In this document: in pieces, positions 13,934 through 36,623 of the stretch
Layout: each line of letters starts with the position of its first letter
How positions within the stretch are numbered: the stretch's first letter is position 1
From: a bacterium
Lineage (GTDB): Bacteria > Patescibacteriota > Gracilibacteria > Absconditabacterales > Absconditicoccaceae
Direction: 5' to 3'
DNA length: 42,914 nucleotides
Assembly (NCBI GenBank): GCA_020629735.1
Contig: JAHDCT010000001.1
Coordinates: 1-42,914, forward strand
Position numbers and translations under genes: made by a program
The notes under the pieces: model-generated
What the model was told of the DNA's origin: nothing
What the model saw: the letters and a program-made list of their open reading frames with translations, nothing else
Databases searched by the model: none

Positions 13934-16900
13934 CTATGCGTCAGCTCATGTAGCTGGGAGTAATGCTGGAAGTTCATTATCAAGAACTCACGCTGATCCA
14001 TGTTGCTCGAAGTCGAATGCTTCTAGTTCGATTTCTTCTTTCTTTTCTTCTATGATTGCAATAATCTTGTTGTCTTCTTCTGTGTATACGATTGGTTCTT
14101 CTTCTGGTTCTTCGATTACTTCTGGTACTGGTTCTTCTTCTGGCTCTTCAACCACTTCTGGATCATTACTTGGAGGCCTTGAACCTGTTCATCCTGTATC
14201 TTCTTTACTCATAAGTACTACTTGAGCTGGATCGTGATCATCTTCGTCTCCTCCATCGAATCCACTTTGATCGATTACGTTGTCGTCATCTAGGTCATCT
14301 GTTTCACCTGCTTGGTTAAAGTTTCCATCATCTGGTGTACTATCGATATCAAATCCTCGATCAGCTCCGTTATCAGAACTAATTTCAGCCCAGTTTCTAA
14401 ATACTTCGTTTCCTTGACTTGCGTCTACGATGTATGTTACTGGAATCGTTAGTGAATCACCTGCAGCAAGTACATAGGTCATTGAGTCTGCTGTTTGGTC
14501 TCCGTTATCTGTCCAGTCTGCATCGTTCAAGATCAATCCTACTGGGATATAATCTGTTACTACGATGTCTTCTGCGTATGTGTTACCTTGGTTTACAATA
14601 GTAATTTCAAAGTCAGCGTCTCCTTGGTCAATTACGAATGGCAATTCTCCTGTGTATTCCTTGTAAAGAGCTAGATCATGGTATGGATCTACTACAAGCA
14701 ATGCTGGATCATGGTCATCTTCATCTCCATTATAGTTATCAACTACGTTGTCTGTGTTGTCGTATACGTCGTCTGTTTGATCAGAGTTTGGTGTACTATC
14801 AACATCGTCTCCGTCGTCGTTACTAATTTCAGCCCAGTTCCATAGTTCTCCAATGATATGGTCATCTACGGTTACTGAGATATCTACCGTTACTCCTGTA
14901 CCTGGTTCTAGTGTTCCTGGTACCGTGTATGTAGCTGTTCCATCATCATTTACTCCCCAGTCTCCACTTGTTACGGTCAGTCCAGCTGGTACGTAATCAG
15001 TAATTACAATATCTGATGCTGGCATATTACCTTGGTTGAATACTTCGATAGTAAAGGTAGCAGCTGATCCTGGATAGAATGGTCCATCTGTTACAAGTAC
15101 TTTTGTAAGAGAAAGATCATATACGTCTCCAATTGGAAGTACTGCAGGATCGTGATCATCTTCATCACCTCCGTTCTTACCGTCTTCATCAATTACTCCA
15201 TCGTCATCAAGGTCGTTTGTTTCACCGTCTTGGCTGAAGTTTGTTGCGTCTGGCATACTATCTACGTCGTCTCCAAATGCTGCACCGTTATCTGCGCTAA
15301 TTTCTGCTCGGTTCACTACTTCTCCTGTAAGATCGTTTTCATAGCTGTTTACTACAAGTCCGATTGTTACGATTTCTGATTCACCTGGAGCAATCATGTC
15401 AGCAACTGTGTGAGTCGCTGTTCCATCTCCATTGTCATTCCAGTTTGCATCTGAGAGAGACAATCAAGCTGGGATGTAGTCTGTAATTTCTACTCCATCA
15501 GCAACGATATTTCATTGGTTTGTTACTCTAATTTCAAAGGTAGCTACATCTCCTGGCTCTACCACATCAGTCGTCACAAGGTATTTCACAAGTGCTAGAT
15601 CGTAATACGGATCAACTTCGATTGACGCAGGATCATGGTCATCTTCGTCTCCGTTTTCGTTGTTAATTGTATCGTCTTCTGGACTTTCTGCTAGCTCATC
15701 ATTTATTGTATCTGGTGTAGAATCCCAGTCACCTCCTAAGTAAGCTCCATCATCTGAGCTAATTTCAGCCCAGTTTGTTACCGTACCGAGGATGTAATCA
15801 TTTACTTGAAGATCGATGCTTACTGTGGTTGATTCTCCTACTGCAAGTTGATCAGTAATAGTCATTGCAGCTTCAGTAGCTGAAACATCATTCCAATCAT
15901 CGTCAGCTAATGTCATTTCAGCTGGAATGTAATCTGTAATGGTAAACATATCTGCTGGTACTGTACCTTGGTTTGTTACCGTAATATCAAATGTTACGAT
16001 ACTTCCTGGGTAGAATGGTCCTTTACTTGCAAGTGTCTTCACAAGTGCTAGATCATAGTAATCAAGCGTAATCATTTCTGGGTCATGATCATCTTCATCT
16101 CCTCCATTCTTACCGTCTTCAGTATTAATGTTGTCATCGTCTAAGTCGTCAGTTTCACCATCTTGGTTAAAGTTGATTGAATCTGGCGTACTATCTACAT
16201 CTGATGTTCCGTATGTTGTATCACTATCGTCGTCAGCAATTTCTGCCCAGTTGATAGCTGTACCTGTTTCTGTTCCGTTGTTTACGAATGAAACCATAAT
16301 TTCAGCTGTTTCTCCTGGTGCCAATGGTCCTACTGCATTGTTGTACGTAGCCACTCCTGCTCCAGCAGTCCAATTAGTATCTGCTAGGTCAAGTCCTACT
16401 GGGTAGTAGTCTACAAGTCCTCCGGCTGGGATTGTTGCGTCAACCGTACCTTGATTTTCAATAGTGATTACAAAGGTTGCTGTGTCTCCAATTCCGTATG
16501 CTGATGGTGCTCCTACTGGCAATGTCTTGATAAGGGCAAGATCATACACATCAATAATAATTTCAGCTGGATCATGATCATCTTCATCACCTCCATTTAA
16601 TCAATCTTGATCAATTACATTATCATCACTAAGATCATCTGTTTCCCCATCTTGGCTAAAGTTTTCTGAATCTGGTGTACTATCTGTATCACTTACCGTT
16701 GATCAATCAAACCCTAAGAATGAACTAACTTCTGCCCAATTAATTATACTTCCTGCTGGGGTATCCATATCTACAGTAAACTCAATAGTCACTGTATTTG
16801 ATGCACTTGCAGCTAGGTCGAATGGTTTTACTAATGTAGCTGTTCCATCACCATTATCATTCCATGCTGTATCATTTAATGTTAATCAAACTGGAATATA

Positions 16901-19900
16901 ATCTATTATTTCTATTGCTGTAGCGTCCATGTTCCCTTGATTTGTTACCGTAATCTCGAAAGCCACTGAATCCCCTGGAGTTACCACGTCTATTCCTGCT
17001 GCTACTACCTTAGCAAGAGCCAAATCATATACTGGTGGAGATACACTAATTGTTGCCGGATCGTGATCATCTTCGTCTCCATTTTCATTCTCTACAGTAT
17101 CATCTTCTGGACTTTCTGTTGTTTCGTCATTGATTGTATCTGGTGTACTATCAGCATCATTTCCATCATCTACACTAATTTCTGCCCAGTTGGTAATATC
17201 TCCATCTATCACTGTTCCATCAAAATCGAAGACAATGTCTACTGTCCCTGTTTCTCATGCTGCTAATGCTCCATAGTTATATGAAGCTGTCCCATCTAGG
17301 TTATCTGTCCATCCTGAATTTGTAGCGTTCAGTGTTAATCATGCTGGGATATAATCTGTGATTGTGAACCCTGCACTATCGATTGTTCCTTGATTTATTA
17401 CTGAAATAGTAAAGGTTACTGTATCTGTTATAAGATAAGGACTGTTATCTGGGTTAGCTACTTTTGTAAGTGCTAGATCGAATACTGGAATTACTACCTC
17501 AGCCGGATCATGATCATCCTCATCTCCTCCATTTAGACCATCTTGGTCAGTTACTCCATCATCATCTAAGTCATCTGTTTCTCAATCTTGATTGAAGTTT
17601 GTGCTATCCGGCGTACTATCCGCATCACTTACCGTTGACCCATCAAACCCTAAGAATGAACTAATTTCTGCCCAGTTAACAATACTACCTGCTGGCGCAT
17701 CTGCATCTACCGTAAATTCAATAGTTACTGTATTAGTTGCACCTGCAGCCAGATCAAATGGTGTCGCTAAGGTAGCTGTTCCATCTGCGTTATCTGTCCA
17801 TGTTGCATCATTTAGTGTTAATCCTGTTGGCATATAGTCAGTAATTGTAACTGCTGTAGCGTCCATATTACCTTGGTTAGTAACTGTAATATCAAAGATT
17901 ACTGGATCTCCTGGTAACACCTCATTGGTTCCTGCTGGTGTCGACACCACCTTTTCAAGGGCTAGATCGTATACTGGTTCTTCGGTAAGCGTTTCTTCTA
18001 CAGTCGAACTATTATTTGTTAATATTTCTTCTGTACAAGTACATGCTTCTGCTCAGATTTCCATCTCCCAAGAATATTCATTTAATACTGCAGCATTAGC
18101 TTCAGCTGTTGCTGATATAGACATTGAAATATCAGTACTAATTGTTTCACCTCAAGATACAGGGATATTCGTCCAGGTAATTACTCATGGGACTGATGTA
18201 TCTGGTACTACCCCATTTATTTCTGCTACAATTGGATTTTCTAGAACACCACCGTATGTATCTGTCAGCGTCACTGTTCAAGGTCTTGAATCTGGATTAC
18301 TTACAGAAATGGTATACGTATGAGTGCTTCAAGCAACGATCGCTGTAGAATCATTTGTTCACATAGTTTTTGATCAGGTTGGCAGCGGTGGTGGTGGTGG
18401 TGGCGTATACGTGTTTTCTATAGTTCATGTGTCTTCTGCATTGTTATTATCTGTTACATCTACTACAATTACTCCAAATCCGTAATCATATCATACTGTT
18501 GATTCGAAATCAAAGGTTGCTCAATTTGGTGCATTTGAACTAATAACAAATTCGTGAGTCATAGTAACACATTCTCATGAAGTAAGAGACATATCATTTG
18601 TCATAATCTCAGCTCCTTGAATGACTACTGAAGCACCCGCTGGCTCTCATGTAGTACTTACGTGACTTAGAAATTGTGCGTTATATGATACTGTATTAGC
18701 AATATTAGTCATATCAAATGCACTATCATTACAGGTAATTGACTCATATAAAACCGTCTCTCATGGTACATATGCACTCCCTCAAGCAGGTGGAGAAACC
18801 GTTGTTCACACAGAAATATCTTGACCTGGTCACTCAGCACATGCACTTACATCCAATGTCGCTGTTGTTGTATTATCATCTCCAGGATTTGTTCCTCATG
18901 GAATTATTGACTCTACTTCTGGATCCCATGAATATGTATCATATGAACATCCAACTGTATTACTCGTTGCCGCACATGGATAATAATCACTGAAACCTGT
19001 TGTATCAGTTCATTGACTCATGGAAGATGAGACGTGTGCAGAATTCGTATATGTTTCAAGAGCTCAACTTGCTGGACAGACTGGAATCAATTCGACAACT
19101 ACTTCCATAGTATCTGCAACATCACAGGTAAGAAATCAAGTAATTGCTACTCAACTGCTTCAATTTTGTGCTATGTCTGCGTCTACAAAAGGAATTCATC
19201 ATGCATACCTCACATCAGTCCCTCACACACTTACTGTTGTAGAGTTTGCAGCTATCGAATCTGCTAGATACGTATTATATTCTTCATAAGTAAGAGTCGA
19301 ATAAGCTCAAGTATCAGCACATACATCACCATCTGATCAACGTACTCCTACTTCAAGACAATCATTTCTTGTATAGAAGAGTTCTGGTTCATATACTGGC
19401 CCCGCTAGAGCTCAAGTATGTTCTGCTAATACTTCAAACTCGAAATCTGCTGCTGATAAGTTTGCATTTGCGTAAGTAGGAATTATCTTCGCCATTGTTG
19501 ATAGAAATGAATCATATCATACAGCATCCAATGCCTCATTAAGCAGTCCAGTGTTAATATTTCAAAAGAAAGTCTGCGCCAAAGAACTAGATAAAATACC
19601 ATTTAACGCATCCAACTGAGTTAGTGTTTCTGCGTCAGCAAGAGCTGGAGTATATCCGTTTTGCAGGTAGAGATTATAGATTCTATTATACTGACATTCG
19701 TACATCCAAGAGTATACGTTTTGATACCCCGCTCAAGCTCATGCTTCATACCATTGTGCATATAAACTATAAGCATCAACAATTGCTGATATGTGGGCTG
19801 AAACAATCGCTTCGTCCTCAGAGCTTCAATTCGCAATATTAGTAGCATAGTATGTTTGAATTCATGCCCAATATGCTTCTAATACAGAAGCTTCAATTTG

Positions 19901-21943
19901 TAGTATTTCATTAAAGAAACTAGGATCATCTAAGATAGCATTTCATGTCGGAACAGATGTAAATCAACAACCTCACGGAGTATATGCTCCTTTAGCAAAG
20001 AAGAGAGGATCTGGAAAGTCTGACCGTAATTCAGGCGCCTCTGTTAAAGGAGGAAAGATTGAAAATGCAACCGTACCTCATCCAAAACTGTCGTATCTCA
20101 CTTCTGTGATTCATTCACACTCTACTTTTTGATCTTCAGCATATGCAGTTGTTAACCATTCTACATAATCAGTATCCTCTAGATAGGTAAATTCATCATT
20201 AGAAACTACTCCATTAAAGATAAAGTTATCCCCCCAATCATCACCAATATATCAATACGTCCACACAATTGGGTCAATTTCAGCAAATGACGCATTAATT
20301 GTCGCGTGAACTGGCTCTAACGGATTAACCGCTCATGAAATTGGAGCTCAACTTGTATCTGTAAATTCCTTACTATTCACCGCCCAATCATGTTGAGCAG
20401 ATCCTCATGGAGCACCTGGACATGAGTTCGCTGTTATACTAACTGTAGCCTCGCTTGCATTGTTACCTACATTTGTTGTATTTACAGCGTTTCAAAGCAT
20501 GATTTCAGTTCATCACGCTTGTGCTCCAGACCTTACTGTTAAGATTCAATCGTTTGCCTCAAAGGTAATATCTGAAAGGTTTTCAACCGTACCTGGATTA
20601 CATCATGCTTGTACATTATATGTTATCTCAATAAATCACTCATCAGTTCCTCCAGGATTCCCATCATCAGCTGTTAAAGAAATATCTCTAAAAACTAATG
20701 TATCCGTTGGATTAGGAGGTCATGCCATATAATAATCATATGATGTTAGTCAAGAAAAGTTAAATTGAGCTTCTGGCATATCAGCTCAAAGATGAGAGGT
20801 GTGAGAAGCATAAGAAAGAAATCCTCATCCTGAAGTCATCTGATCAACTATTACAATATCAGTTAGGTCTTGACTTGAGTTATTGCTATAGTCTAGTCTA
20901 AAAATTACCTGCTCTCCATCTGAATATGTCGTAGCTCATGTTCCTGCAATCGATTTTACAATATCGATATCAATAGGAGGCTGAGTTAACTGAACCTCTC
21001 ATGTATTGTTCCCACCTGGATCCGTTTCTGTACTCCAGTCTGTAAGGTATAATACTCAATCTCAAGTTGCAGATATATCAAATCTACCTATTTGAGCATA
21101 ATTATTAATTTCAAGAGCTCAGTTGACTAGCACTTCAAATGTTACGGTAATTGTTTCTCCTGCTGCTCAATCTACTAGGGGAACTGAATCCCATACCAGC
21201 TGATCAAAATCACCTATTGCCTCTACAACTGTTGGGGCAGCTAAACCAGGAATAGTACTTGTATATGAAACGTATTGTAAATTCCGATCTTCAAAGTAGT
21301 CAACTATTCTTATATCATTTTCAAGGTATCCTGAATTACCAACGGTTAGTGTAAAATCAACCATATCTCCTTGTGACACAACTGTTGATGTCGTTGTTTT
21401 ATCTAACGATAAATCATAATCATATGATGGAGGAGGCGAATATACTATTGCACTCGATGCTCCTTCTCAACTATAACTAGCTCCTGGTAAACACCCAGCA
21501 CAGTCTGTACTTTCGTTATTTGGAAGTGCTAGCGATCACGTATTTGAGATAGTATCTCACGCTACTGCTCATCAATCAACTATAAAATCTACCGTGATAG
21601 ATCCAGATTCATCTGCTGCCAGATCTAGTCAGCTCCACTCAAGCGTTCATGCCCCAATTGTATCTGGAGTTACACTTGCTGTGTCAAACGTCAAATTAGA
21701 TCAGAAGGTGTCAGTGATTGTAACTCAGTCTGCTGTTGCAGGTCATGAATTTACATAATCAATCTGATACGATACCGTATCTCAAGGACTAACATCTCAC
21801 GTTGTTATTAACGTTTTCGTAATTTGCAGATCGTTTGGATACGATTGGGCAAATACAAGATTAGAAAAAAATGCTTGTATCAGAAGCATTGTTATTGCAA
21901 ATCCTCTCAGCAAATTTGCAAAAAATCAGTTTTGTTTGACCAT
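13934..21943 (-). CDS. giant secreted repeat (DUF11-type) adhesin-like surface protein, 2,669 aa
   Basis: All five standard-code fragments (14189.., 15512.., 16886.., 17582.., 21167..) share one frame. I scanned every inter-fragment segment and found only TGA, with no TAA/TAG, from ATG at 21943 to TAG at 13934-13936. N-terminal signal peptide MVKQNGFFANLLRGFAITMLLIQAFFSNLVFAQS. At least 8 modules of ~130-140 aa (YDLAL.K...PG....F.I.V.NQG...A....ITDY.P.GL...NWAEIS.D.G..D.DSTPD...DD....GGDEDDHDPA). A non-repeat middle region spans ~18.3-20.3 kb and includes a PPPPPPLP linker. Confidence 0.9.
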
Positions 21944-22925: not shown

Positions 22926-25900
22926 TTAATTGCCTTGTTCACCCCCTGTCGGAAAGAGGATGTTGTAGGCTTTTTCAGCATCAGATACAGCAGAACGAAA
23001 TTTGAGGATTGCCTCTTTCATTAAACGCTGAGCTTCTGCCTTATTGTTTGCAGTTGTGTTTTCAAAGGTTAATTCGCCATTGTTGACAACAGGTATTGGA
23101 ACATTGAAACCTTGCTTTTGAGCAGTACTTATTTGGTAATCCGTTATAAAGCGGTCTTCATAAAGGTTTGGTATTTCACCTGTCATGCGCTCATATTTAA
23201 CTATTTCATAAGGTGGTATCCCCATTACTAAGTTAAAAATCGCCTCGTCAACGGTTCTTCCCCAAGCTAAGTTATCACCTTCAGCAGCAATAATTAACTT
23301 GATTGATGGCAACTCTGCCTTTCCATCTTCGAAAGCTGACACATAAAAAGGCTCAATAAAAACCACCGTAGAGTCAATAGGTATGGTTATCATGTTACCA
23401 CGAAGTACCTTCGACCCTTTATCATCGAGCCAACTAATTTGAGTTGACATCAATGTATTTCCTGAAATCAAAGACTCAATTTTCCATGGAGCATACACAT
23501 TTAAGTCCATTGGGTAATAGAGCAACTCTAAGTCAAGATAGGTTTCATAATCAGATGAACCTGCAAGAATAGCTCGCAAAAAATCTCTTGGCTCTCCATC
23601 CGACTGGGGCTCAGGAGTAAAATTAATAACAGTATTAAAACCAAAATGCCCATGAGCATTTAACATCATTTGTCTTGGAACCATCTGTGTTCTCTTACCT
23701 AAGTATTTCTCATGTCCTACCTCCCAACCATAAAAGTTAGAATAAAACTCTTCAGGCTTATCTTGGTGGTATCTTTTAAGCATATACTTTTGCGCATAGA
23801 TGTAATCCAAAGGATAGATGAGATGTTCTAACACATCTGCAGGCATGCTCTCAAAGGGTTTGAACATTCCCGGCAGAATTTTCATAATTGTAGTCATTAT
23901 TGGATCCTCTTCAGGATACACAGAATAGAAATCTACTGTTCCATCATAGCTATGGACTATTGCCTTCGCTGATGGACGGATGTAGTTAAATTTCTCGTCC
24001 TTCGTAGAGTCCAATTCTGACATATTTAGATGATTTGAGTAAGGGAACTTATCTGATTTGGTGTATCCATGCACCATCCAAACCAAAGAGCTATCCTCCG
24101 TAATTATTGGATGTGCATCTTCGTCCCAATCAATCATTGGACATAAAGCCTCAACTCTTTCCTTAACCTGTCTACGCAACAAGATTCTTGAGTTCTCATT
24201 AATGTTTGGCTGCCCAAATACTAACTTAGAGTCGTACTCATATCCAAAAAACCACTTCTTCCAACCTGAACCAATATTAATTCCTGCCTTACCCTTATAG
24301 ACAGAACGCCTTGTTTTATTTCCATCAGGAAAGTCATATTCTTTAATGTTTGTATTAACATAGAAGAATTTTCCTCCCTTGTTGTCCGCCTCTTGAAAAT
24401 AAATCTTTGGAGATGGTTTAAGTTGTTTGAAGATTGGAAACCCTGTTTGTAAATCATACTCATTAGCTACCATTGAAAAGAAACCGTCCCCATGACCATA
24501 CTCGTAATACTGAGTAATATAGGTCTTAGGATCTAAACCTTCCTGGCTTAACTCAATAGGAGCATACATCATCAAAACGCTATCTTCTCTACATATATCA
24601 ATATCACCCACAATGTACTGAGGAAATTTGGTTACGTTCTCAGTTACAATCCTACTTGTCGCACTAAAGTCCAAAACTCTTGCATTACCGATAAGAACAC
24701 GATTTCTCCGCACACTTTCGATAGTCAAGCCGGGCTTATAGGCAACTTCCTTTTTGGTCAACCTACTTGATAAGCCAAAACCTTCAAGGGTAGACTGAAT
24801 ATTATTATTGATATACTCTTTTTCCACATTACTCTCATTTGGCGCAACAACATAACTTTGAATCAATCCTGGCACAACAAGACTGTTCAAAAGCAATTGT
24901 ATTCCCACGATATTTACTATAATATTTATAGGAACTGAGTATTCATCAGGCTTATGCTGTCCCCAAAAGAACCAAACTAAAGCATAGATTCCTGCTGTTA
25001 CTATACCTACAATAATCCAATGGGTGTACGCACCACCTGACATAATCAACGGCAATGCAATGGCGAAAATTGCTATGCCGAAAGTTGCATGTGACAAGTT
25101 ATGAAACAACTTGCTTTTTGACTTCACAAAAGTTATTAAAAGCGCAATAATAGACAAAGCTAAATAGATAAATTGGGAGGCTTTGCTAACAGGAATTCGA
25201 ACATTTTTATCGGTGTAACCAACTCCGATCATATTCAAATTAGTACCCGCTTCATGACTCGAAGAAAGTAAATTGTAGAGGTCTAACTGAACGCCATAGA
25301 TGGATACTAAGCACCAGACAGAAAACCAAACTCCTACTGACTTAGGAAAATGATCAAGGAACTCCTCTGTATCCCAATTGTTTCTGCTTGTTTTGACACC
25401 ATGGTAAATAAAAGCCATAAGTCCCATAACTACAGCAAACCATAACACACTTGAGACAAGCATATCTCTAACAGACAAATCCATCAAATAAAATGCGTTA
25501 TCCAAATTGAAAATTTTATCTACTGAAGCTCCCATTTCTCCGTAGTTCCAAAATTTCAATAATTCAAACCATTTTGAGCTTAATGTGCCTGCAAAAAGAG
25601 ATGCGAGTGAAATGCCAACCAACCCTGATACTATACCATTTAGATAGGGTTTTAATTCCTTATTTTTTTTATATTCAATGCTTTGGTTGAACAAATAAGC
25701 AGAATACACGGTGAATAAAGTTCCCAGCACCGAAAAAATAAGAAAGAATGCCTTAAGTTGACCAAAATTCTGCAACCAAAAGACATCTTCACGACCAAGT
25801 TTTTTAAACCACCAAAAGTCAGTTAGGTAGCCTGCCAACAGATCATGGATAATTATCCCGACTAATGTGACTATAGGTAAAACCCAATGCCACCATCTCA

Positions 25901-26024
25901 GCCAAGACAATTTCGTTTCCTCACTCTCTTTATTAGAGTTCGCTTTCTTATCTCTACGATAAAAAGCCCACGCTCCTGGGACAAAGGAGAGAAGGAAAGT
26001 TGTTAAGAAGATAGTTAAATACAT
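22926..26024 (-). CDS. UPF0182-family large polytopic membrane protein (1,032 aa), UGA-free
   Basis: Uninterrupted even in the standard code. N-terminal third has about 7 TM helices (...FWWFKKLGREDVFWLQNFGQLKAFFLIF...), followed by a large soluble domain. Overall layout and length match UPF0182 as I recall it. About 69 Gly by my count, none encoded by TGA. Confidence 0.85.
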   Translation of the reverse strand: MYLTIFLTTFLLSFVPGAWAFYRRDKKANSNKESEETKLSWLRWWHWVLPIVTLVGIIIHDLLAGYLTDFWWFKKLGREDVFWLQNFGQLKAFFLIFSVLGTLFTVYSAYLFNQSIEYKKNKELKPYLNGIVSGLVGISLASLFAGTLSSKWFELLKFWNYGEMGASVDKIFNLDNAFYLMDLSVRDMLVSSVLWFAVVMGLMAFIYHGVKTSRNNWDTEEFLDHFPKSVGVWFSVWCLVSIYGVQLDLYNLLSSSHEAGTNLNMIGVGYTDKNVRIPVSKASQFIYLALSIIALLITFVKSKSKLFHNLSHATFGIAIFAIALPLIMSGGAYTHWIIVGIVTAGIYALVWFFWGQHKPDEYSVPINIIVNIVGIQLLLNSLVVPGLIQSYVVAPNESNVEKEYINNNIQSTLEGFGLSSRLTKKEVAYKPGLTIESVRRNRVLIGNARVLDFSATSRIVTENVTKFPQYIVGDIDICREDSVLMMYAPIELSQEGLDPKTYITQYYEYGHGDGFFSMVANEYDLQTGFPIFKQLKPSPKIYFQEADNKGGKFFYVNTNIKEYDFPDGNKTRRSVYKGKAGINIGSGWKKWFFGYEYDSKLVFGQPNINENSRILLRRQVKERVEALCPMIDWDEDAHPIITEDSSLVWMVHGYTKSDKFPYSNHLNMSELDSTKDEKFNYIRPSAKAIVHSYDGTVDFYSVYPEEDPIMTTIMKILPGMFKPFESMPADVLEHLIYPLDYIYAQKYMLKRYHQDKPEEFYSNFYGWEVGHEKYLGKRTQMVPRQMMLNAHGHFGFNTVINFTPEPQSDGEPRDFLRAILAGSSDYETYLDLELLYYPMDLNVYAPWKIESLISGNTLMSTQISWLDDKGSKVLRGNMITIPIDSTVVFIEPFYVSAFEDGKAELPSIKLIIAAEGDNLAWGRTVDEAIFNLVMGIPPYEIVKYERMTGEIPNLYEDRFITDYQISTAQKQGFNVPIPVVNNGELTFENTTANNKAEAQRLMKEAILKFRSAVSDAEKAYNILFPTGGEQGN

Positions 26025-27713: not shown

Positions 27714-30700
27714 TTACTTTTTGAAATCTACCAACAGTGCCTTTGAGTAGTCTCAATGTAACTGTAAATCTTCAATATGCGCCTTATCAATCTGTTCTGT
27801 CAGTACAGCTAATGCTATTGGAGAAGCTCCAGCCGTCGCTCCAGCAAGCTGCTCTAGTTTAAATAGCATTTTTTTCAACATTTTCACATTAGTGAAAGAG
27901 ACCGTTTCATGAGATATAGGTATACTATTTACAAATGCGGTAACTGGTAGATTATGCTTTCTTGCGAAGAGTATTCGGGGGAGATAGTGCTCCAGAAAAT
28001 TATATGAAATTTCTTCAAGTACGCCTTCCGGACTATCTCTGTACTGATACATGATTGATTTTTTTGTTTCTGGTACCAGATGAGAACGACTAAAATTTAT
28101 TACTATCTTATCATAATTCTCAGGGATAAGTTTCCATCATTGACCCGCTAAATATGCTTCTGCCTCCTCAAATAGATTCCTACTATCTTCCTTACTTACT
28201 TCTAGGTACGAGAGAAAATCACGAGAAGAGCTTCTTTTTACTGTATGTGATGCTCATAGTTCTTCTACAAGTTCTTCTATTGAAGCCGTTGAGATAGTAT
28301 GCCCTAGTTTTGTCAGCCCATCTTTGATATCTTCTCGATCTTCAAACCACTCTTTTTTCTCATCTTCATCAACTACTAACCCAATTGTTGAAAGTTCTGA
28401 AACAGACAAATAATCTTTTTCCTTGATTAGCTTTGCAATTTCGTCTCTAAATTTATGCACTCGTTGTATACGATATTTTACTTCCCCTAATCATACTAAT
28501 GCTGCTCACACTGCTGAAAGCATAAACAGAATTAATCCTATCATTCATCGATAAGATCAAATATCTCTGTACTCGTTATGTCCATACGGATCAACTACGC
28601 TGAGTATTTTTCTATGTGTATCAGCGACCACCTTTTCATCTACTTTTTTTCCATCTTTAAATTCTTTTGCAAGCTTCGTAAAGATTCTTTTTACTCAGGC
28701 CAATTGCCTTTGCGTCAGCTCTTGTCCTCACATAACTACTGTATACAATTTGTAAGGCTCTACTGCTCACAAATTTATATAGTATTCTCGTACTTCGTCT
28801 TCAGTGAAAAGCTCTGGGTATTTAACGACATCATGCATTTTACTTACTGCCCTATATGTTCTAGCTTGATCATTCCATGTAGGAAAATTATCTAAATGTT
28901 CTTGTGCATTCTTTGATACTACTTTTAGTTTTAATGAATCCATATCAGAAACATTCAGACATATCACACTCATTACTAAGCAAAAGATTGCTGATACCGT
29001 ATATGGTGTACGCTTATTTTGATTTTCTGCTTCTAGAGTATCAAGCCGGTTGTCAATTGGAAAAGAGAGCTTGCCAGAATAAAGCTCATTGAACTTCTTC
29101 GCCAGCTCTTTCATTGTCTTTCTCCTTCTCTTTGTGTAAACAGCAAAAAAGGCTAGTAAGTATACTCCCAATGTACCAACAAGATATATAAAATAATCTC
29201 TTATATCACTGTTAACCTCATCTAAAAAGTCGTAGATTTCCTTTGCAAGTGGACTTCTATCTTTAATCATTGGATCGAGATACTGATCTAAGGTATGTTT
29301 GAATCAGTCTGATTTTTTTAACATATCTGCCGCATTCTTCTTATTTTGCTGACGAAAGTACTCTTCCACTGCTTGACTAAATCACACTCCTTGGCCATTC
29401 ATATATCTGATAATTTCTTCTTTTGCTTGCTCATCGTCATGTATCTTAAATGATACATCGATTTGTGACTTGATAAAAGCAGCCTGATCTTCCATTATTT
29501 TATCAACTGCTTCATGCTTTCCTTTATAGAGCTCATCAAAAAACGGAACTGTTTCTTCAAAGTTATAGATATGAAAGATACTATCTACTTGTTGAGTAAT
29601 TGTTGCACGCAATGTAGTCGTACTAATAATTTCATCTAAAGAAATAGTTCAATTCTTTTCACATTCTTCAGCAAGATATGTTATCGTTCTTCTTGATACT
29701 GATTCTCATACAAGGTCTTTTTCTTCAAGATACTCTTTTATAATTGTTCAGCTCGCCTGCCTCAGACCGTATTTCGGATCGTTATAGTGAAAAATAAAGT
29801 TTTGGTCTTTTTTTCGATCTTCATATGCTTCATCGGAAAATAGGTGTATTCTTAGTTTCTCAGCTAGATATTCGAGATCTTTCATATACTTCATATGGAG
29901 AAAGTTAATCACCTTCTCTTCTGCCTTTGAAGGTTGCTGATAAGAAGCCCAGCGGGGTTTGAAAAGCTTATTGTATATATTTTCTCTTAGCGTTGAATCT
30001 ACTTGATAAGAGAAGTAGTTTGGATCATATTCTCATTTGCCGGTGAAATTAAAAGTATCTACTTGCACTCCAGCATACTTACTTCAACTTCACTGAATTT
30101 CTTCGGCAATTTCTTCTTCAAACTGCTTTCTTGTATTAAAAAACCAGTCTAAGCCTCATTCTCTTCCTTGTGATGTTCAATTCCCTTTTCCATTACCTCA
30201 GCCTCTTCACCCACTCCCTGTTCCGATTCATTCTCATCATGTATCCTGCTCATCGTTCTTTTCTTCTTTTTGGGGTCTTTGATGTCATAAGTTTTCGTTT
30301 GTTTCAAAATCAACATCCGGTACATTACCTGGCAATTGATCTTTAGGGCTTCTCGTAGCGAGCTCCTCAGCATTTTCTAAAAGGTAGTTCATTCATTTCT
30401 TTGCTTTTTCTGCATCTGAGATATCGAGTTTATCGATTTCATAGAAATAACTCTGTTGATATCTAATAATTAAATCTGTCAATGCATCTCTTGTTCATGG
30501 TGTTTGTAGAGAGTGTGATCTTGCTGCTATTATTCATTTTGTTCATCAACAAAAAAATGCGATAGCAACAGGATCAACAATATCCTCGCTGAATATTCTA
30601 ATAACTTTTTGTAAATGTTTAGCATAGTCTCGATTTGGTGGCTGAGAGTCTGAGTTTTTATAATTATAATACAGTTTTGCTGAAAAATTTTCAAATCAAT

Positions 30701-32324
30701 CATAGCCTCAATATGCCTTGTCTATCATAAGCATATTTAGTATATGAGGCGCATATGGATCATATTCGTCATATACATCGTGGTTCGTCAATTTATAGAG
30801 AATATGTTGTGTTATCGCTTCAGTAAGTCATTCATTTCTCATAGTTGAAGCTGATGTTCAAGTAAGTCCATGAACAAGTTCGTGTATGATAACATGTATT
30901 ACTTCTCGCGTATTTCCTCTTTTGAGGAGTTCCTCATCTAGATAGACATCTTTATCAGTTGGATTATCAGCCCGTGATTTATATAGTCCAATGACATGGC
31001 CAGGCAGGTCCTCCACCCTAATTTCATCTACTATTCAAACCTCAAAATCAGCTTTTTTTACCGCGTCTTTTCAACGTACGGTTTTTATGGTTTCATAAAA
31101 CGCCAACTTCACTAAATCAAAATCGATAACTTCGTTATTTTCTACCGTTTCTTCTAGGTTTGAAAAATCATTATGTTTGTGAAAGTGTCCAATTTCGTGT
31201 TCATGAGGATGTCCATGCTTGTGATGGTCAAATTCATCTTTATCAGGTATAGTTAGGACACTGATTCAGGTTGCTCCGTGATCATATAAATTCTCGTAAT
31301 CTCTAAAAAGCAGTTCATTATCTATTTCTTCAGCTGGTATCGCATCATCATCTTTTTCTTGCCAAGGATACTGGATCTTCTTTCCGATAGGTCATGCACT
31401 AGTTTCTATCGCTATAGGCTCGTTGATTATCTCTGCAACTTTCGTTCAAACAACACTTAAGATCGCAATCGTTCCAATTCCTACATAGGTCCAGTTAACT
31501 GCTTTGGGTCTTTTTCTTAACATCTTCTTGAAAAGCTTCCGATGCTTCTCTTGATGAGTCTTTCAATCTCGTTCTTCTTCAAAATATGAAAAATAGCTCT
31601 TTACAGATTCTGAGTCTAGTTCATGCACGGCAGCATGACCTACATATCTTAATCATGCTGCTATTACTCAAGATACTTTGCTTAGCAAAGGTGCAAAATC
31701 GATATTATTTTGGAAATACAATCACTTAATTTCTTTCAACAATGCTTCTATTGTCTCCTTATCGTATCCATCTTGAACGCACATCTTGAGTAAGTCACAA
31801 TACGCACAAAATATAAGTGGTTTACTATATCCTTCTCAAGTTTCAAGGAAAGGAAATGATTTAAGCAGACTCTTTCACTCCTCTAGTTTTTCAAAGGAAG
31901 CATAAAGCGGCTTCTTGTAAGAATATTCACGTTCTCCAAGAGTGAAATCTATTCCCTTTTCTCCTCTTTGATAGCCAAAGGTTGTTCGTTTTCTACGCTT
32001 CTTCTTCCTCTTTTCCTTTCATTCTTTTTCTATTTTTCCCTTATCTTCTTTTCCTTTTGATACCCAGGTACGGTCAAGAAAGGGATATGAGGTATATATA
32101 TCTATCTCGCGAGGCTCCTCATCTACTTTAACTCATTTATTTCACCTAAATGACTCTGTATAAAAATTCTGTAAACTTTTTTCGATTAGGGCTTTGTAGT
32201 TTTGACGGAGAAATTTCTGTTGTTTGTCATTTTTTCCAAGCACCTCAAAAGCACTCTGATTATAGCCAGAGATATGTGTTGTAATATTTTTCGAATAAGA
32301 AAACGAGTCTAATCTAAATATCAT
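27714..32324 (-). CDS. 1,536-aa membrane-anchored protein with HExxH (gluzincin-like) metalloprotease motif
   Basis: Five standard-code fragments (32142.., 29382.., 28767.., 28254.., 27753..) share one frame. All gaps were scanned and contain only TGA, from ATG at 32324 to TAA at 27714-27716. TM helix ...KAVNWTYVGIGTIAILSVVGTKVAEII. His-rich DKDEFDHHKHGHPHEHEIGHFHKHND. VIHVIIHELVHGLTGTSASTMRNEGLTEA (HELVH at 30870-30884, with NEG..E 12 residues later). Gly-rich linker. Three further hydrophobic helices (YFIYLVGTLGVYLLAFFAVY, TVSAIFCLVMSVICLNV, MIGLILFMLSAVGAALVGLG). Confidence 0.85.
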
Positions 32325-32749
32325 ATAAACCTATTTATAAATCATATACTTCTCTTCTTCACGCAGCCTAGCAAACCTTATTCGTGACAGTCCGTCCTTC
32401 AAAGACCTATACAGTTCTTCAAATGAAATACACTATTTGTGACCTCACATCTTGCTTTAGGTATAAAATGAATTCGTTTATCTGTTTTGGCTCTCACTAC
32501 GATCATATTTGAAAATCTAATTCTTCATTCCATACGAGAGTATTTTAACGGTATTTATTTTTTTACGGCCGCATGTAATTCTTCGGTTTGCAAAAGAATT
32601 ACTATAACTAGCTCAGTCTTTCAACTCTATGCTTTTATTGTCAAGCATCCAAATCATTCTCGTATCTGTTTACTCTTTTTATACAATTGTTTTCTCGATT
32701 TGATTTTCTTTGAGCACTATAATGAAAAATCTATGCTCAAACGTATACT

Positions 32750-32777
32750 TTTATATGTAAATCACAATCATTGTCAA
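32750..32777 (-). promoter_or_regulatory. sigma70-like promoter upstream of the 1,536-aa gene (long leader)
   Basis: On the - strand: TTGACA (32772-32777), 16-nt spacer, TATAAA (32750-32755). Lies about 420 nt upstream of the ATG at 32324. Confidence 0.4.
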
Positions 32778-32812
32778 TACTTATAATTCAATGAATATTC
32801 TTTGATATAAAT

Positions 32813-32837
32813 AAAAAGCGTGCCTAAACACGCTTTT
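32813..32837 (-). terminator. intrinsic terminator after RT gene
   Basis: Stem AGCGTG / CACGCT with a 6-nt loop. Flanked by an A-run (32813-32817) and a T-run (32834-32837). Starts 9 nt after the RT stop. Confidence 0.6.
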
Positions 32838-32845
32838 CTACAACT

Positions 32846-34387
32846 TTAAAGGAGGTTTGAATTTGGACTCACTCAGTCTGTTATAATCACATTGGGTGCA
32901 ATCTTCACCTTTGGAAAGAGATTCTTCTTAGCTAATTTAAACCGCTTGTCAAATTCGTTAGGCACCTTTCTCTTAATATCTTTAATAAAATTTCTAATTC
33001 CATGTAATACGTAGGCAACTTGCATAACATCTACCTCTCATCCAGTTGTTAGATACTTTGTACTTAACTGCTTCGGGTTTTGTGCTACTAGTTTTGCAAA
33101 TGCTATATAGTTGAGCATTTTTTTCTCAGCAATACCCAAGCGACCATCAGGTCAAATGGTAATTCAGGTAATTTCTTTAGCAGTGGCTGATAATGGTGTC
33201 CACATTTTTTCTTTTTCAAACTTCAGCTTTCGATTATTTTGCCCTTGCACAATTTTTATCAAACGTAGTCTAAGCTGTTCAAACTGGTCTTCATTTTCTG
33301 CTCAATCAACTCATTTCAGGGACTTGTCAAGTATTCAAATTTGTGTAAAGATTTTCTCTTTGTGGCTGTTGAGTTTCGCTTTTATGAATTCATTATCACG
33401 GAGACCTTCTAATCACTGCTTAATTAAAATGATTGCATTGTAGGTACGACGCTTCGAGTCTTGATCTTCAAATATTTTTTCTGCAGGCGTTTCTATATTT
33501 ATAAATCAAACTAACAACTGCTCTACTTGTAAGAGTATTGAATCTATTTCTTCTCATACCGTAGTTGGCTCATTTGAATTATTTTTTACTTCCTCTCCTA
33601 GTTTCTTTATTTTCTTTATCACTTTATGAACAGCCTTTGAAAATTCTCAGAAGTTTTCAAAATATTTAAAGCTGATCGCCATATCATCAATATATCTTGT
33701 GAACATAGGATTTACTAAGATCGAATTCTTATCATTGAGTGCTCAAATGATTTGACTATCCGTCTTTCACATAACGATATTTAACATACGAGCACTTGTA
33801 GGTGATCATTGAGGTAACTTTCCTTCATGAGAAGTTAAGGTTGTTAGCACATCAACAAACGTCTTTCTTTGTTCACTATCTAGATATGGATATGAAAGAT
33901 CAAATATTTTTTCTAATCATCCGTTTAAATTTGCATTAATTCTTCCTGCATCTACTGAAGGGTATGCACTTGCGATATCAGTTGTTAAAAGATACCCAGA
34001 CTGTCTATGAAAATTAGCGTTTTTACTTGGTCTGGTTCCTAGTTCTCATCATTGCACTGCTGTCGAAACAGGCACTTGTCTCAAGTTAACTAATAAGCTT
34101 TTTTGCAATCTTTTTAGCGGAACACTTGGTGCTGATATCCTTCTTTTCTCTTTACTTTTTCCTCACTTATCAACGAGAAAATCAAAATACCCTCATGTTA
34201 ATTTCTTTTCCACGTCACTTCCTCTGAGAGTAACCATTCCTGTTGATTTTGGGGTTAATCTTTGTTTTAGCGTTTCTTTTAACGAGTTTTGAGAACAATT
34301 CAAGAAATGACAAAGTGCTTTCAAGACTTGCTTATCTCTCAAAATTGGCATAATTTCTTTTGAATCTTCCCATTTTATAGCTTCCAT
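32846..34387 (-). CDS. retron-type reverse transcriptase (513 aa)
   Basis: ATG at 34387 (a TTG at 34414 is also in frame), TAA at 32846-32848, frame scanned line by line. Motifs: KRRISAPSVPLKRLQKSLLVNL; GYLLTTDIASAYPSV; GKLPQGSPTSARMLNIV; FTRYIDDMAISF (YxDD, 33683-33694); AKEITGITIGPDGRLGI (33165-33173, resembling the VTG motif of retron RTs). No maturase/endonuclease tail. Confidence 0.85.
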
Positions 34388-34800
34388 CAACTCTCGTAAC
34401 GTAAAATAAAACAAAGATATTGTACCTAGCTCCTACCCTGATTATCAGTCTACTGGATTCTATTGTATATCCTCTTCTTATCGAATTGGGGGTGTCACTT
34501 ATTTTGTGTACCCCCATAATTGGTTTGTGCAAAAGGATTAGGGAAAACTAGGGAAAACTCAGTAATCTTACATGTAAGCTTACATGTATGCATACAAGCA
34601 TAAAGCTCTGAAAATCAGTAAGTTACAAGGAAAAATAACTTAAAATAACTGAGCAATAACTTATAATAACTGAAGTCCCGAAGACCCGTGTACCTTAAGC
34701 ACGCAGTTAGATGAATCCTTACTCCAGCCTATCGCGAGAGTATCTACCTCAGAGGGTATACGGACATCTGTGATGGGAAATCCCATTCAAAAAAACCTGC
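34388..34800 (-). ncRNA. RT-proximal structured non-coding unit 1 (candidate RT-associated ncRNA / msr-msd-like leader)
   Basis: Lies between promoter 34807..34834 and the RT start, with no credible ORF. The 5' ~110 nt and the 3' hairpin region are conserved with unit 2, including a 45-nt identical core (34733-34777). The central ~150 nt is unique and full of short repeats and palindromes. Confidence 0.55.
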
Positions 34801-34806
34801 CCTCAA

Positions 34807-34834
34807 GCTATATTTATTACTAAACTTAAGTCAA
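34807..34834 (-). promoter_or_regulatory. sigma70-like promoter of unit 1 / RT
   Basis: On the - strand: TTGACT (34829-34834), 16-nt spacer, TATAGC (34807-34812). The same arrangement and flanks (ATATTGACTT...TATAG.TTGAG) occur at 35283..35310. Confidence 0.5.
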
Positions 34835-34856
34835 TATACTTTTTTCATTTATCTAT

Positions 34857-34886
34857 AAAAAAACCTATCTTAAGAAAGGTTTTTTC
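34857..34886. terminator. bidirectional intrinsic terminator separating unit 2 from unit 1
   Basis: A7, then AAACCT-loop-AGGTTT, then T6. On the - strand the stem is followed by T7. Confidence 0.6.
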
Positions 34887-35276
34887 TAAACTTGCTGTAT
34901 TATCGTCTTTTTTTTTCAAGTTGGGGCGATAGGTTATTCCTACTCCCCCAAAATTGGTGTGTACTAAAATGGTCGTGTGAATGGTTCACATAAATTTATG
35001 AATGATTCACATAAATTTGTGAATGGTTCACATGAATTTACGAATGATTCACAAAGCTCGCAAATCTTTGATTATCAGGCTATTATAAGCTAGATAACGC
35101 CAGATAACAATTCCATGGAAATTCCGAGAAATTTCCAGAAATTTCCGTAAATATTCATGATCTTCAGGACCTTTAGTAGGCAGTTAGACCATCCTTACTC
35201 CGGCTTAACGCGAGAGTATCTACCTCAGAGGGTATACGGACATCTGTGATGGGCACTACCCATTCATTAGTTCTGC
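34864..35276 (-). ncRNA. distal structured non-coding unit 2 (stand-alone paralogue of unit 1)
   Basis: Own promoter (35283..35310) and terminator (34857..34886). Conserved 5' block includes the 45-nt core identical to unit 1 (35209-35253). The conserved 3' motif GTACACACCAATTTTGGGGG opens a G/C hairpin (34921-34951). The central ~200 nt is unrelated to unit 1. Confidence 0.55.
34977..35060. repeat. four tandem 21-nt repeats, each containing a 13-nt palindrome
   Basis: GTGAATGGTTCACATAAATTT / ATGAATGATTCACATAAATTT / GTGAATGGTTCACATGAATTT / ACGAATGATTCACAAAGCTCG. Palindromes are GTGAAnnnTTCAC and the junctional CATAAATTTATG (34989-35000). Confidence 0.9.
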
Positions 35277-35282
35277 ACTCAA

Positions 35283-35310
35283 ACTATAAATCTTCAGATC
35301 ATGAAGTCAA
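35283..35310 (-). promoter_or_regulatory. sigma70-like promoter of unit 2
   Basis: On the - strand: TTGACT (35305-35310), 16-nt spacer, TATAGT (35283-35288). Confidence 0.5.
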
Positions 35311-35324
35311 TATATTCTCATTCT

Positions 35325-35912
35325 TTACTCATTTTCTGGAAATAATCCTTCTTTGATAGCCTTTTCGTAATATCTCTCAAAAATTGATGCCGTCTGCTGA
35401 GAATACCCCATTACCTTCTTGTTGTGCGCTCTACTTTTCTCTTGTGTAATTCATTCCTCATTCCGCAATCTCCCATCACTATTTTGGGCGAGAGCTTGTA
35501 ACTTATCAAGTGTTTTGGCAAATTTTGCTTCTTCATTTGACTGCTCTTCATACATGATTCGTAAATCATGAAATTCTTTTGCTTCTTTTTCCGGCAGCTG
35601 ACTAAATAACTGATGAGCAGATTTTTTTTCACGTTCCTCTTTTTATTTCTTTCCTTTCTCATCAAACGCAAACACATCCTTTGCATAAATTTCTACTAAA
35701 TCATGTACAAGGATAATTTTTAGCGTTAGAAGGAGGTCTACATCAGTATATCATAACTCGTCTTTTAGCAGTATTGCAAACATACACATGTGTCGCTCGT
35801 GTTCTGCGTCATTTTCTCTTCTTTGAATCCCTCAGACATACCCTCTTCTAAAGGTTCTTTTAAACTTATCTAACTCTGCTAGAAAGTCGATTTTCATCTG
35901 AATTTTATCCAT
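35325..35912 (-). pseudogene. HD-domain phosphohydrolase (YfbR-like) interrupted by one in-frame TAA
   Basis: ATG at 35912 and TAA at 35325-35327 are in the same frame, with an internal TAA at 35643-35645 confirmed by coordinates. MDKIQMKIDFLAELDKFKRTFRRGYVGGIQRRENDAEHERHMCMFAILL...LKIILVHDLVEIYAKDVFAFDEKGKK, stop, KEEREKKSAHQLFSQLPEKEAKEFHDLRIMYEEQSNEEAKFAKTLDKLQAL... Contains H..HD..D-type motifs. Confidence 0.7.
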
Positions 35913-36056
35913 CTTTCTTTTTTTTATGTAAATACTTTTCTTCTATACTGATCATGCTTTTCACTTCAAAAGACTTCAGCAAAATGAACAGTTAAGGCCT
36001 ATTGACTTCTTCTTCATTTTATTTATTTTATCTTTATTTTATTTCAACTCTATTCT

Positions 36057-36623
36057 ATGTCTATTAGCTTGTGAGACCTAAGACGATATGAAGGAATCAA
36101 GAATGCAGAAAGATATGAAAAGCCAAGAACGAGACTTGGGTACCATGTTGATTTTCTCTTAAAAAACCTTTGATTCAGAAGTCTATGAGACTTTGCAGCG
36201 GCTGATCCCGTGACCTATAGGAAACTCAGCAAACTCTGAAGAAAATGACTCATGTATAAAAACGAGATGGAGCCCCTTCTCAAATCTAGATCTAGTAGCA
36301 TCCTGATGAAGAGTAACGGACGTCTCGTTAAGACAGATCTTAATGATTACTCACTTAAAAGCTGAGACAAGCTTAACGAATACCTTCGTGAAAATTGGCA
36401 AGGTCTCAATCCTTCAGTTACTATTACTCTTGTGAACGATTCATGAACAGAAAGAGAATTTGAAGTTATTAATTATATCAGTCGTGATGGTCTTTGATGA
36501 GCTATTTACTCACAAAGCTGGATTAGTGATTATGTGAACTATATTGTGGTTCGCGAAAATCTCTGAGGCAATGATCCTGAGTATTGAGAAGAGTTTATTA
36601 TGCCTATTAGGTTAGATCAGTAG
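36057..36623 (+). CDS. hypothetical protein (188 aa)
   Basis: ATG at 36057, TAG at 36621-36623, frame checked, 14 in-frame TGA. No family recognised. Confidence 0.7.

Follow-up and report, generated by a model that had tools for sequence, protein, structure and literature searches.

A previously undescribed clade of retron-type reverse transcriptases accompanied by one to three upstream units predicted to encode structured RNAs

This study concerns a 42,914-nt stretch of DNA (the window; positions 1 to 42,914 of contig JAHDCT010000001.1, assembly GCA_020629735.1) from a bacterium of the Absconditicoccaceae family in the Gracilibacteria. The window carries a gene for a reverse transcriptase (RT) on its minus strand and, directly upstream on the same strand, two tandem units that appear to be genes for structured non-coding RNAs (ncRNAs). 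An initial annotation had proposed a retron layout for this locus. The features are listed here in the direction of transcription; P1, P3, P4, b1 and b2 are parts of the RNA structure described below, and R1 is a covariance model.

35283–35310, minus strand: unit 2 promoter, TTGACT-N16-TATAGT, 10 of 12 matches
35168–35276, minus strand: unit 2 scaffold, with P1 (35247–35266), P3 (35216–35237), P4 (35198–35216) and b1 (35168–35178); R1 match at 35179–35243
34975–35167, minus strand: unit 2 core, with a GGAAATTTC array (35108–35147), two copies of GTTATCT (35089–35109) and 3.6 copies of a 21-nt repeat with palindromic GTGAAYCATTCAC (34975–35052)
34921–34974, minus strand: unit 2 3′ module, with the b2 strand GACCATTTTAGTA (34962–34974), an ACCAATT linker and a G/C hairpin (34921–34951)
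34857–34885, minus strand: intrinsic terminator ending unit 2, a palindrome, with weak Rfam terminator-type matches on the plus strand
34807–34834, minus strand: unit 1 promoter, TTGACT-N16-TATAGC, mirroring the unit 2 promoter
34693–34800, minus strand: unit 1 scaffold, with P1 (34771–34789), P3 with a CUCUGA loop (34740–34761), an interrupted P4 (34722–34740) and b1 (34693–34702); R1 match at 34706–34767
34537–34692, minus strand: unit 1 core, with four copies of AGTTATT (34631–34672), a palindromic ACATGTAAG/CTTACATGTAAG array (34562–34596) and two copies of AGTTTTCCC (34538–34560)
34485–34536, minus strand: unit 1 3′ module, with the b2 strand CCTTTTGCAC (34527–34536), an ACCAATT linker and a G/C hairpin without a T-run (34485–34517)
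34388–34484, minus strand: spacer from the unit 1 hairpin to the RT start codon ATG, with no terminator and only weak promoter-like sites
32846–34387, minus strand: RT gene, 513 aa under code 25, with 19 in-frame UGA codons (Gly), retron RT superfamily
32813–32838, minus strand: intrinsic terminator 3′ of the RT gene, an 11-bp stem followed by a T-run

When translated with table 11, the RT region splits into small open reading frames (ORFs); with table 25, it is a single 513-aa ORF. It was found that LPQ[UGA]SPTS and IT[UGA] of this RT align with LPQGAPTS and ITG in its relatives. Since the relatives have ordinary Gly codons at these positions, the alignment indicates that UGA is read as Gly in the genome of the window. 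Outside Gracilibacteria and Absconditabacteria, code 25 is not known. The translated RT contains LLTTDIASAYPSV, LPQGSPTS, YIDD and ITGITIG. RVT_1 is its sole Pfam domain, and no maturase, endonuclease or integrase part was found by Pfam; the initial description of the ORF as a retron-type RT lacking such parts is thus borne out.

Retron RTs are defined by NAxxH in region X and a VTG triplet in RT7 in region Y (Mestre et al. 2020, PMC7736814). The first motif is NANFH in the window RT and NALHH in its relatives. The (V/I)TG motif is ITG in the window and in relatives, and its G is the most conserved residue. In PADLOC, the best 25 matches of the window RT are all retron RT models, with RT_VI at the top (1e-28). 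In NCBIfam, retron_St85 matches at 1e-31, in contrast to 5e-7 for Drt2, 1e-5 for AbiA and 1e-5 for group II intron RTs. When the family profile was compared with the sequences of the PDB, only retron RTs (Kva2, Ec86, Ec78, Ec67 and Ec83) were above noise, Drt3a being at 1e-3. An AlphaFold (AF2) model was made of P0014, a standard-code member of the family, from a 26-sequence input (predicted local distance difference test score, 90.8). The 18 best Foldseek matches of this model in the PDB are all retron RTs (E values from 4e-11 to 5e-7). The next RT classes start at 2e-6, DRT2/DRT9 structures lie between 4e-5 and 1e-4, and the RT of a diversity-generating retroelement (DGR) is at 7.5e-4. The fingers, palm and thumb of the model all superpose on the retron RT fold. 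Thus, by PADLOC, NCBIfam, PDB sequences and Foldseek alike, the RT is nearest to retron RTs and not to group II or DGR enzymes. These profile and structure matches place it with retron RTs, rather than with any other RT class, by wide margins. The RT does not belong to the UG/DRT class of defence RTs, the Drt2 and Drt3a matches being far weaker than the retron matches.

On the other hand, the 26 full-length members of the family all match every retron type model about equally in PADLOC. In NCBIfam, the retron model scores 110 bits, with its cut-off at 235, and the type-specific cut-off is missed for every retron type. Since all type models are matched about equally and below their cut-offs, the family would lie within the retron RT superfamily but outside the described types. 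All 26 aligned members have an insertion of about 130 residues, modelled as five helices, between RT5 (YxDD; YIDD in the window) and RT6/7 (ITG). Judging from motifs, profiles and the structure model, the family is a previously undescribed clade of retron-type RTs.

How widely is this clade distributed? A word-indexed search of 5.8 billion proteins gave six full-length relatives. An exhaustive profile search of 1.84 billion cluster representatives gave 49 proteins below 1e-30, with about 25–30 full-length clusters. At least 26 full-length relatives are known from this analysis, spanning UGA-recoded lineages and standard-code organisms. The closest ones are from metagenome-assembled genomes labelled Absconditabacterales and Peribacteria, and a metagenome scan added one locus, L016 (loci and proteins are referred to by L and P numbers). 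No member was found on viral contigs. P0012, P0013, P0014, P0017, P0033 and the locus L024 use ordinary Gly codons, and the L024 RT translates correctly under code 11. Thus, the family is not restricted to recoded lineages. The initial annotation had stressed the setting in a UGA-recoded genome of the candidate phyla radiation; this is correct for the window but does not extend to the whole family.

The two units upstream of the window RT share a 137-nt block with 76% identity, including a 45-nt identical run (34733–34777 and 35209–35253). One hairpin keeps its stem and differs in its loop between the units (ATGGG-ATTT-CCCAT versus ATGGG-TAGTG-CCCAT), and another is GTAT-ACC-CTCTGA-GGT-AG-ATAC. 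The cores that follow are unrelated and are 152 and 193 nt in length. Then a shared 3′ motif, GCACAAACCAATTATGGGGG / GTACACACCAATTTTGGGGG (ACCAATTNTGGGGG), leads into a G/C hairpin in both units. This whole succession had been described in the initial annotation: the TTGACT-N16-TATAG(C/T) promoters were found again at the same places, the conserved block and its hairpins agree to the base, and the dissimilar cores and the 3′ motif with its hairpin are there as described. The G/C hairpin is kept in both units although neither has a T-run there, and thus it is more than a terminator. As had also been noted, only unit 2 is followed by a terminator, while unit 1 runs into the RT start codon. The unit 2 terminator also reads as a terminator on the plus strand because it is a palindrome. 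Unit 1 and the RT are probably transcribed together, given that the spacer between them lacks a terminator and any promoter-like sites in it are weak. Rfam gave nothing except terminator-like matches at E ≤ 1 over positions 32000–36500, and one tRNA alone reaches the gathering score in the whole window. A 114-aa ORF under code 25 (34719–35063, minus strand) arises from the 21-nt repeat of unit 2, which corresponds to seven codons. It is almost certainly no gene, since it crosses the unit 2 terminator and the unit 1 promoter. A similar spurious ORF was made by the gene caller over the L020 core (2496–2993).

Is this arrangement common among the relatives? Upstream DNA was usable for 13 RT loci besides the window, with the L025 unit cut at its 5′ end by the contig edge. 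It was revealed that all 13 have one to three units directly upstream on the RT strand, which makes 14 loci including the window. A unit is laid out alike in all of them: a sigma-70-like promoter is followed by a structured scaffold, then by a core rich in repeats and finally by a G/C hairpin, usually with a T-run after it. What is seen in the window goes far beyond what chance would give; every related RT with usable upstream DNA has this architecture too. The extra ncRNA copy without an RT of its own, of which the initial annotation knew no description, is recurrent: the window has two units, L010 has two and L019 has three. In L010, both units are complete, each with its own promoter and terminator, and a third copy of the promoter drives the RT. 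L019 likewise has a separate RT promoter after its three units. Unit number changes quickly, since the L010 and L019 RTs are 88% identical and yet carry two and three units, respectively.

Other features were seen upstream of some of these RTs. L001 (8530–9560) and L005 (4880–5340) also contain non-coding units of another kind, which have promoters, a conserved scaffold of a different type (ATGAGTATTCGATCCNGTAGATAAAC) and repeats of their own (three copies of GATGTAAGT). They sit between a large upstream protein gene and the RT-proximal unit, and R1 misses them. In L023, a tRNA-like gene with a terminator, as judged by eye, lies directly upstream of the ncRNA promoter (about 228–305).

The scaffold is predicted to fold into hairpin P1 and then a three-way junction, composed of a closing stem P2, P3 with a CUCUGW loop, and the interrupted hairpin P4. 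The scaffolds of eight relatives were aligned with MAFFT, which is blind to structure, and the three-way junction was then defined by inspection. In this alignment, 89% of the cells pair, versus 36–50% when the 3′ partners are slid by 1–3 columns. Double changes are found in 10 of the 17 scaffold pairs, and none of 500 shuffles reached the observed values. R1 was built from these eight scaffolds with no window sequence and was searched against 205 kb on both strands. Besides its eight seeds, it found both units of the window, all three of L019 and one of L010, with no further match at E ≤ 1. The non-seed matches sit exactly at the expected place and strand. In an alignment of 14 units fitted to the model, pairing reaches about 95% in P3 and P4, where double changes are numerous. 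The earlier proposal of RT-linked RNAs with a shared scaffold and exchangeable cores is thus supported by covariation, seen in hairpins P1, P3 and P4, and by the linkage at 14 loci, and the window units were recovered by a model made from relatives only.

In every unit, the segment after P4 (b1) is predicted to pair with a segment just after the core (b2), so that the core, and nothing but the core, is enclosed by a stem. Compensatory differences are seen between L006 (CGUGCG/CGCACG) and L002 (CCUGCG/CGCAGG), as well as between unit 1 (GUGCUUAAGG/CCUUUUGCAC) and unit 2 (UACUAAAGGUC/GACCAUUUUAGUA) of the window. Thus, the conserved 3′ motif of the initial annotation does exist, while part of it is one strand of the core-closing stem. 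There is an alternative partner for b1 in several relatives, namely, the 5′ arm of the 3′ terminator hairpin. In units of the L010/L019 type, the helices GAUGAUUGAGA/UCUCAAUCAUGC and GUGGAA/UUCCAC cross, so that either a pseudoknot or a pair of alternative folds would result.

The cores, which evolve fast, are built from short repeated words. Seventeen cores contain 203 locally repeated 7-mers, versus 10.2 ± 4.2 (maximum 25) in dinucleotide shuffles, and 33 perfect 5+5 palindromes, versus 7.7 ± 2.7. Most repeat families have exactly two adjacent copies at a fixed offset of 10–11 nt. The spacings of the repeat families are 10 nt (29 cases), 11 nt (9), 12 nt (7) and 20–22 nt (17), with almost nothing else. 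The cores also fold better than shuffles, with a mean z of −3.6. Some words are shared between loci. Two copies of AGTTTTCCC are found in window unit 1, L002, L006, L008 and L023, and L001 and L016 have near-exact doublets. Likewise, ATGTAAGCTTACAT is found in four units, TGTCCGGACA in L020 and L024, and TCTAGRGAA in L010b, L019c and L025; AGTTAGNA and GGATAACT doublets are shared as well. Runs of TTGC-N6/7-TTGC are present in L020 (2770–2800), L010b (L010 3715–3770) and L019c (L019 2840–2870), a pattern that I take to be the same as the phage lambda CII binding box. The L010 and L019 cores carry reverse complements of words found elsewhere (GGATAACT/GGGAAAACT versus AGTTATCC/AGTTTTCCC), while the homologous scaffold keeps its orientation. 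In clear orthologue pairs, the word order is kept, and the words are 67–82% conserved versus 54–61% for the linkers; the differences include changes in word copy number and swaps of words.

Three readings of the words and cores were examined and rejected. First, neither the remainder of the window nor any of the flanks examined in relatives contains the words; being confined to the cores, they are not common genomic operators. Second, the doublet AGTTTTCCCNAGTTTTCCC (of AGTTTTCCC) has two matches in IMG/VR, at L021 9172–9190 and L022 199–217. L021 and L022 are unrelated phage contigs of higher GC content, with the doublet in intergenic repeat-rich DNA, and the L021 match to window unit 1 extends to TAGTTTTCCCTAGTTTTCCCTAA. 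Two matches are about as many as estimated for chance, and thus a viral origin is not indicated. Third, stop codons occur in all three frames in 12 of the 17 cores in the RNA sense and in 14 of the 17 in the sense of the complementary DNA (cDNA). Since most cores have no stop-free frame in either sense, synthesis of a Neo-like gene as in DRT2 was ruled out.

The genes around the RT vary from locus to locus. When UGA is read as sense, long genes of 2669, 1536 and 1032 aa emerge in the window; the 2669-aa ORF (13934–21943, minus strand) and the 1032-aa ORF (22926–26024, minus strand) appear only in this code. The initial annotation had suggested an HD-domain gene and a large HExxH protein beside the RT as accessory or effector genes. 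This was not supported, since neither is conserved beside related RTs and neither matches a defence profile. The HD_3 (YfbR-like) gene (35912..35325, minus strand) is one frame of about 195 codons with an in-frame TAA at 35643–35645; it could be a pseudogene, or a case of sequencing error or read-through. Its stop codon (35325–35327) lies about 15 nt upstream of the −35 box of unit 2. The 1536-aa HExxH protein (27714–32324, minus strand) has no Pfam or PADLOC match. Proteins with HExxH (HELVH, HEMQH and HEIGH) are found downstream of the RT in the window, in L010 (8163–9446) and in L024 (5042–5773). The three have no detectable mutual similarity and are absent from the TrmB-type loci, and their occurrence after the RT in three different contexts is just a hint. 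The first context is a TrmB-type helix-turn-helix (HTH) gene and a 770–970-aa protein upstream of the RT in L001, L002, L005 and L016, with L006 keeping the large protein at the contig end. The second is a set of AAA_5 and HExxH proteins downstream in L010, AAA_5 being found also in L019. The third is the window's own arrangement. PADLOC gave no significant match for the HD gene, the 1536-aa protein, the TrmB-linked proteins, the AAA_5 proteins and the 243-aa L024 protein, with the exception of a marginal GajB match (E 1e-4) for the AAA_5 protein. The sole TrmB-like HTH gene of the window (1305–2090, minus strand) is 27–31% identical to the RT-linked ones. It lies about 30 kb from the RT with no large partner beside it, and thus the window locus lacks the TrmB partner pair of its closest RT relatives. 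The loci with a TrmB-like HTH gene have the following element, a few tens of nucleotides upstream of the ncRNA promoters, which is absent from the window and is likely an operator.

L002 4970–4990; L006 1806–1826; L008 30–55; L005 4842–4862 and 5870–5895: imperfect palindrome TGTTAC-N9-10-TAACAACA
L016 3588–3612; L001 9140–9165 and 9585–9612: the same palindrome

In retrons, the RT recognises the msr and copies the msd. By analogy, the units described here are probably cognate RNAs that template DNA derived from their cores, made by a clade of retron-type RTs with one to three separately transcribed ncRNAs. The RT would bind the shared scaffold and reverse-transcribe the stem-enclosed core, and a single enzyme would thus yield as many different small DNAs as there are units. 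These products would consist of short sites in arrays, either repeated or able to form hairpins. Their most likely role would be anti-phage surveillance, as for other retrons, and one may conjecture that the product is bound or modified by proteins of the invader.

The likeness to retrons lies in the NAxxH and (V/I)TG motifs and the fold of the RT, in the position of the ncRNA immediately upstream on the RT strand, in a 5′ part with three hairpins like the msr, and in a variable, stem-closed 3′ part at the position of the msd. In contrast to Ec86/Eco1 and to types II-A, III-A and VI, this family has up to three ncRNA genes per RT, independently promoted and terminated, and an RT that has the helical insertion and scores below every type-specific model. 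As a system, it lacks two canonical features of retrons, the single long msd stem-loop and the conserved effector. Several points weigh against the templating of core DNA by a retron-like mechanism. The core is a chain of phased short repeats that folds into 2–9 short hairpins with 36–74% of the bases paired, and there is no single long stem-loop. When core-spliced units were folded and examined by eye, neither a consistent terminal a1/a2 duplex nor a branching G was found. No conserved or recognisable effector and no fused domain was seen, and no neighbour is common across the RT loci examined; the helical insertion in the RT is the only constant extra. As for the scaffold, its structure was derived from the same sequences on which the pairs were first counted, and P2 is just 68% paired in the 14-unit alignment. 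The non-seed R1 matches are individually weak (E 0.06–0.6, and 0.4–0.6 for the window units), and R1 missed L010a, L020 and L025, the last having its 5′ end cut by the contig edge. Thus, of the retron layout proposed in the initial annotation, the retron-type RT and the structured RNA stand, while an msd-like long stem-loop and a consistent a1/a2 duplex were not found.

What may the products be for? The words take the form of palindromes or direct doublets, their distance is one or two helical turns, and they are used in either orientation. These properties point to recognition as duplex nucleic acid by proteins, which would require second-strand synthesis or a persistent RNA–DNA duplex. Arrays of sites in duplex DNA, such as operators, iterons and CII-type TTGC-N6-TTGC boxes, likewise have palindromic words of 10–13 nt, direct repeats at one or two helical turns and independence of orientation. 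They differ in that the arrays of this family are part of an RNA gene that is structured, transcribed and linked to an RT, and in that its words are not found elsewhere in the sampled genomes. A further step is to regard the cores as libraries of protein-binding sites that can be exchanged (palindromes resembling operators, 21-mers resembling iterons, and direct doublets in phase, for example TTGC-N6-TTGC), copied into multicopy DNA that would titrate or sense DNA-binding proteins of invaders. This DNA would be made double-stranded or kept as an RNA–DNA duplex. With every additional ncRNA unit, a new set of decoy sites would come in, and the gain, loss and re-wording of units would be rapid. 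Reading of retron DNA by proteins of invaders is described for Eco8 and the single-stranded DNA-binding protein of phage (PMC13402713). I regard the decoy or sensor function as unlikely.

Two other explanations would give the repeats a different meaning. In reiterative synthesis, as in telomerase or DRT3, the nascent DNA would re-pair at the 3′ copy of a doublet, and long tandem repeats of the 10–11-nt word would be made. Doublets at a fixed offset of 10–11 nt are the minimum for such a realignment, and the copy number of words varies between close relatives. There are precedents as well: DRT3 makes repetitive, even double-stranded, DNA from short repeated templates, DRT3a producing poly(dTdG) from 5′-ACACAC-3′ RNA (PMC13174585), and DRT2 makes concatemeric cDNA from an ncRNA (PMC12039810). 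DRT2 and DRT3 share with this family the structured upstream ncRNA, the repeats (ACACAC in DRT3a) or the re-use (DRT2) of a template that give repetitive DNA, and a possible pseudoknot, in units of the L010/L019 type. However, the RT is of the retron class and lies outside the UG/DRT class (Drt2 5e-7, Drt3a 1e-3 and DRT2 structure 4e-5), and the repeats are words of 7–21 nt of many kinds, not a single di- or mononucleotide. A core has several different doublets in series plus palindromes, and reiteration of one would block the others. In addition, slippage alone does not account for words reused in both orientations. Reiteration is thus quite unlikely.

The units may instead act as RNAs without reverse transcription, either as sponges for proteins or RNAs or as a leader or attenuator of the RT gene, with the repeats as binding sites at the RNA level. 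The strong promoters and, at most loci, the units' own terminators would fit this idea. The alternative pairing of b1 with the terminator hairpin in several relatives would allow attenuation, and repeated short motifs are typical of sponge RNAs. However, words that occur in either orientation relative to the scaffold are hard to square with recognition of single-stranded RNA. The units of L010 and L019 are not leaders of the RT, since the RT has its own promoter copy after the terminated units. Moreover, in the 205 kb of DNA examined with R1, the units were found only beside this RT clade. A function as RNA alone is quite improbable on these grounds.

It is highly improbable that the arrays work as duplex genomic DNA, that is, as clusters of transcription-factor sites regulating the RT locus or as road-blocks, with the RNA structure being secondary. 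Palindromes, phasing of 10–11 and 21 nt and independence of orientation are hallmarks of protein-binding sites, and one sub-family has a TrmB-type HTH gene together with a conserved palindrome upstream of the promoters. However, the arrays are internal to a transcribed unit, where covarying RNA helices flank them and a compensating stem encloses them. Neither the remainder of the window nor the flanks of relatives contain the words, and no HTH gene lies near the window RT locus. Finally, a DGR or a fragment of a group II intron, with the units as template repeats or intron RNA, would also place an RT beside repeated non-coding DNA but is effectively refuted: neither core has a variable-repeat copy in the 43-kb window (all matches ≤16 nt, E ≥ 0.5), neither Avd nor a target gene is present in the window, structural similarity to the DGR RT is weak (7.5e-4), no Rfam intron or other RNA match and no maturase or endonuclease domain was found, and the group II RT model matches at 1e-5 versus 1e-31 for the retron model.

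A retron, as described so far, pairs one RT with one msr-msd RNA and yields a single hairpin DNA. The family appears to break this rule with its several independently expressed RNAs per enzyme, its cores composed from a shared vocabulary of short phased repeats, and its large helical RT insertion, present in all 26 aligned members. A literature search found nothing relevant on retrons in these lineages or on retrons with several ncRNAs. As far as the literature was searched, this would be the first retron-type system described in UGA=Gly bacteria of the Gracilibacteria/Absconditabacteria type, about whose immune systems little has been reported. Should the cores be templates, a single RT would produce small DNAs as a programmable set, which would be of interest for the purpose of retron DNA and for multiplexed production of DNA in cells. 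From the phasing of the words by helical turns and their use in either orientation, one arrives at a definite hypothesis, namely, that the words are duplex sites for proteins. If the sites are indeed decoys, the family would represent a templated, modular "decoy immunity" without a described precedent.

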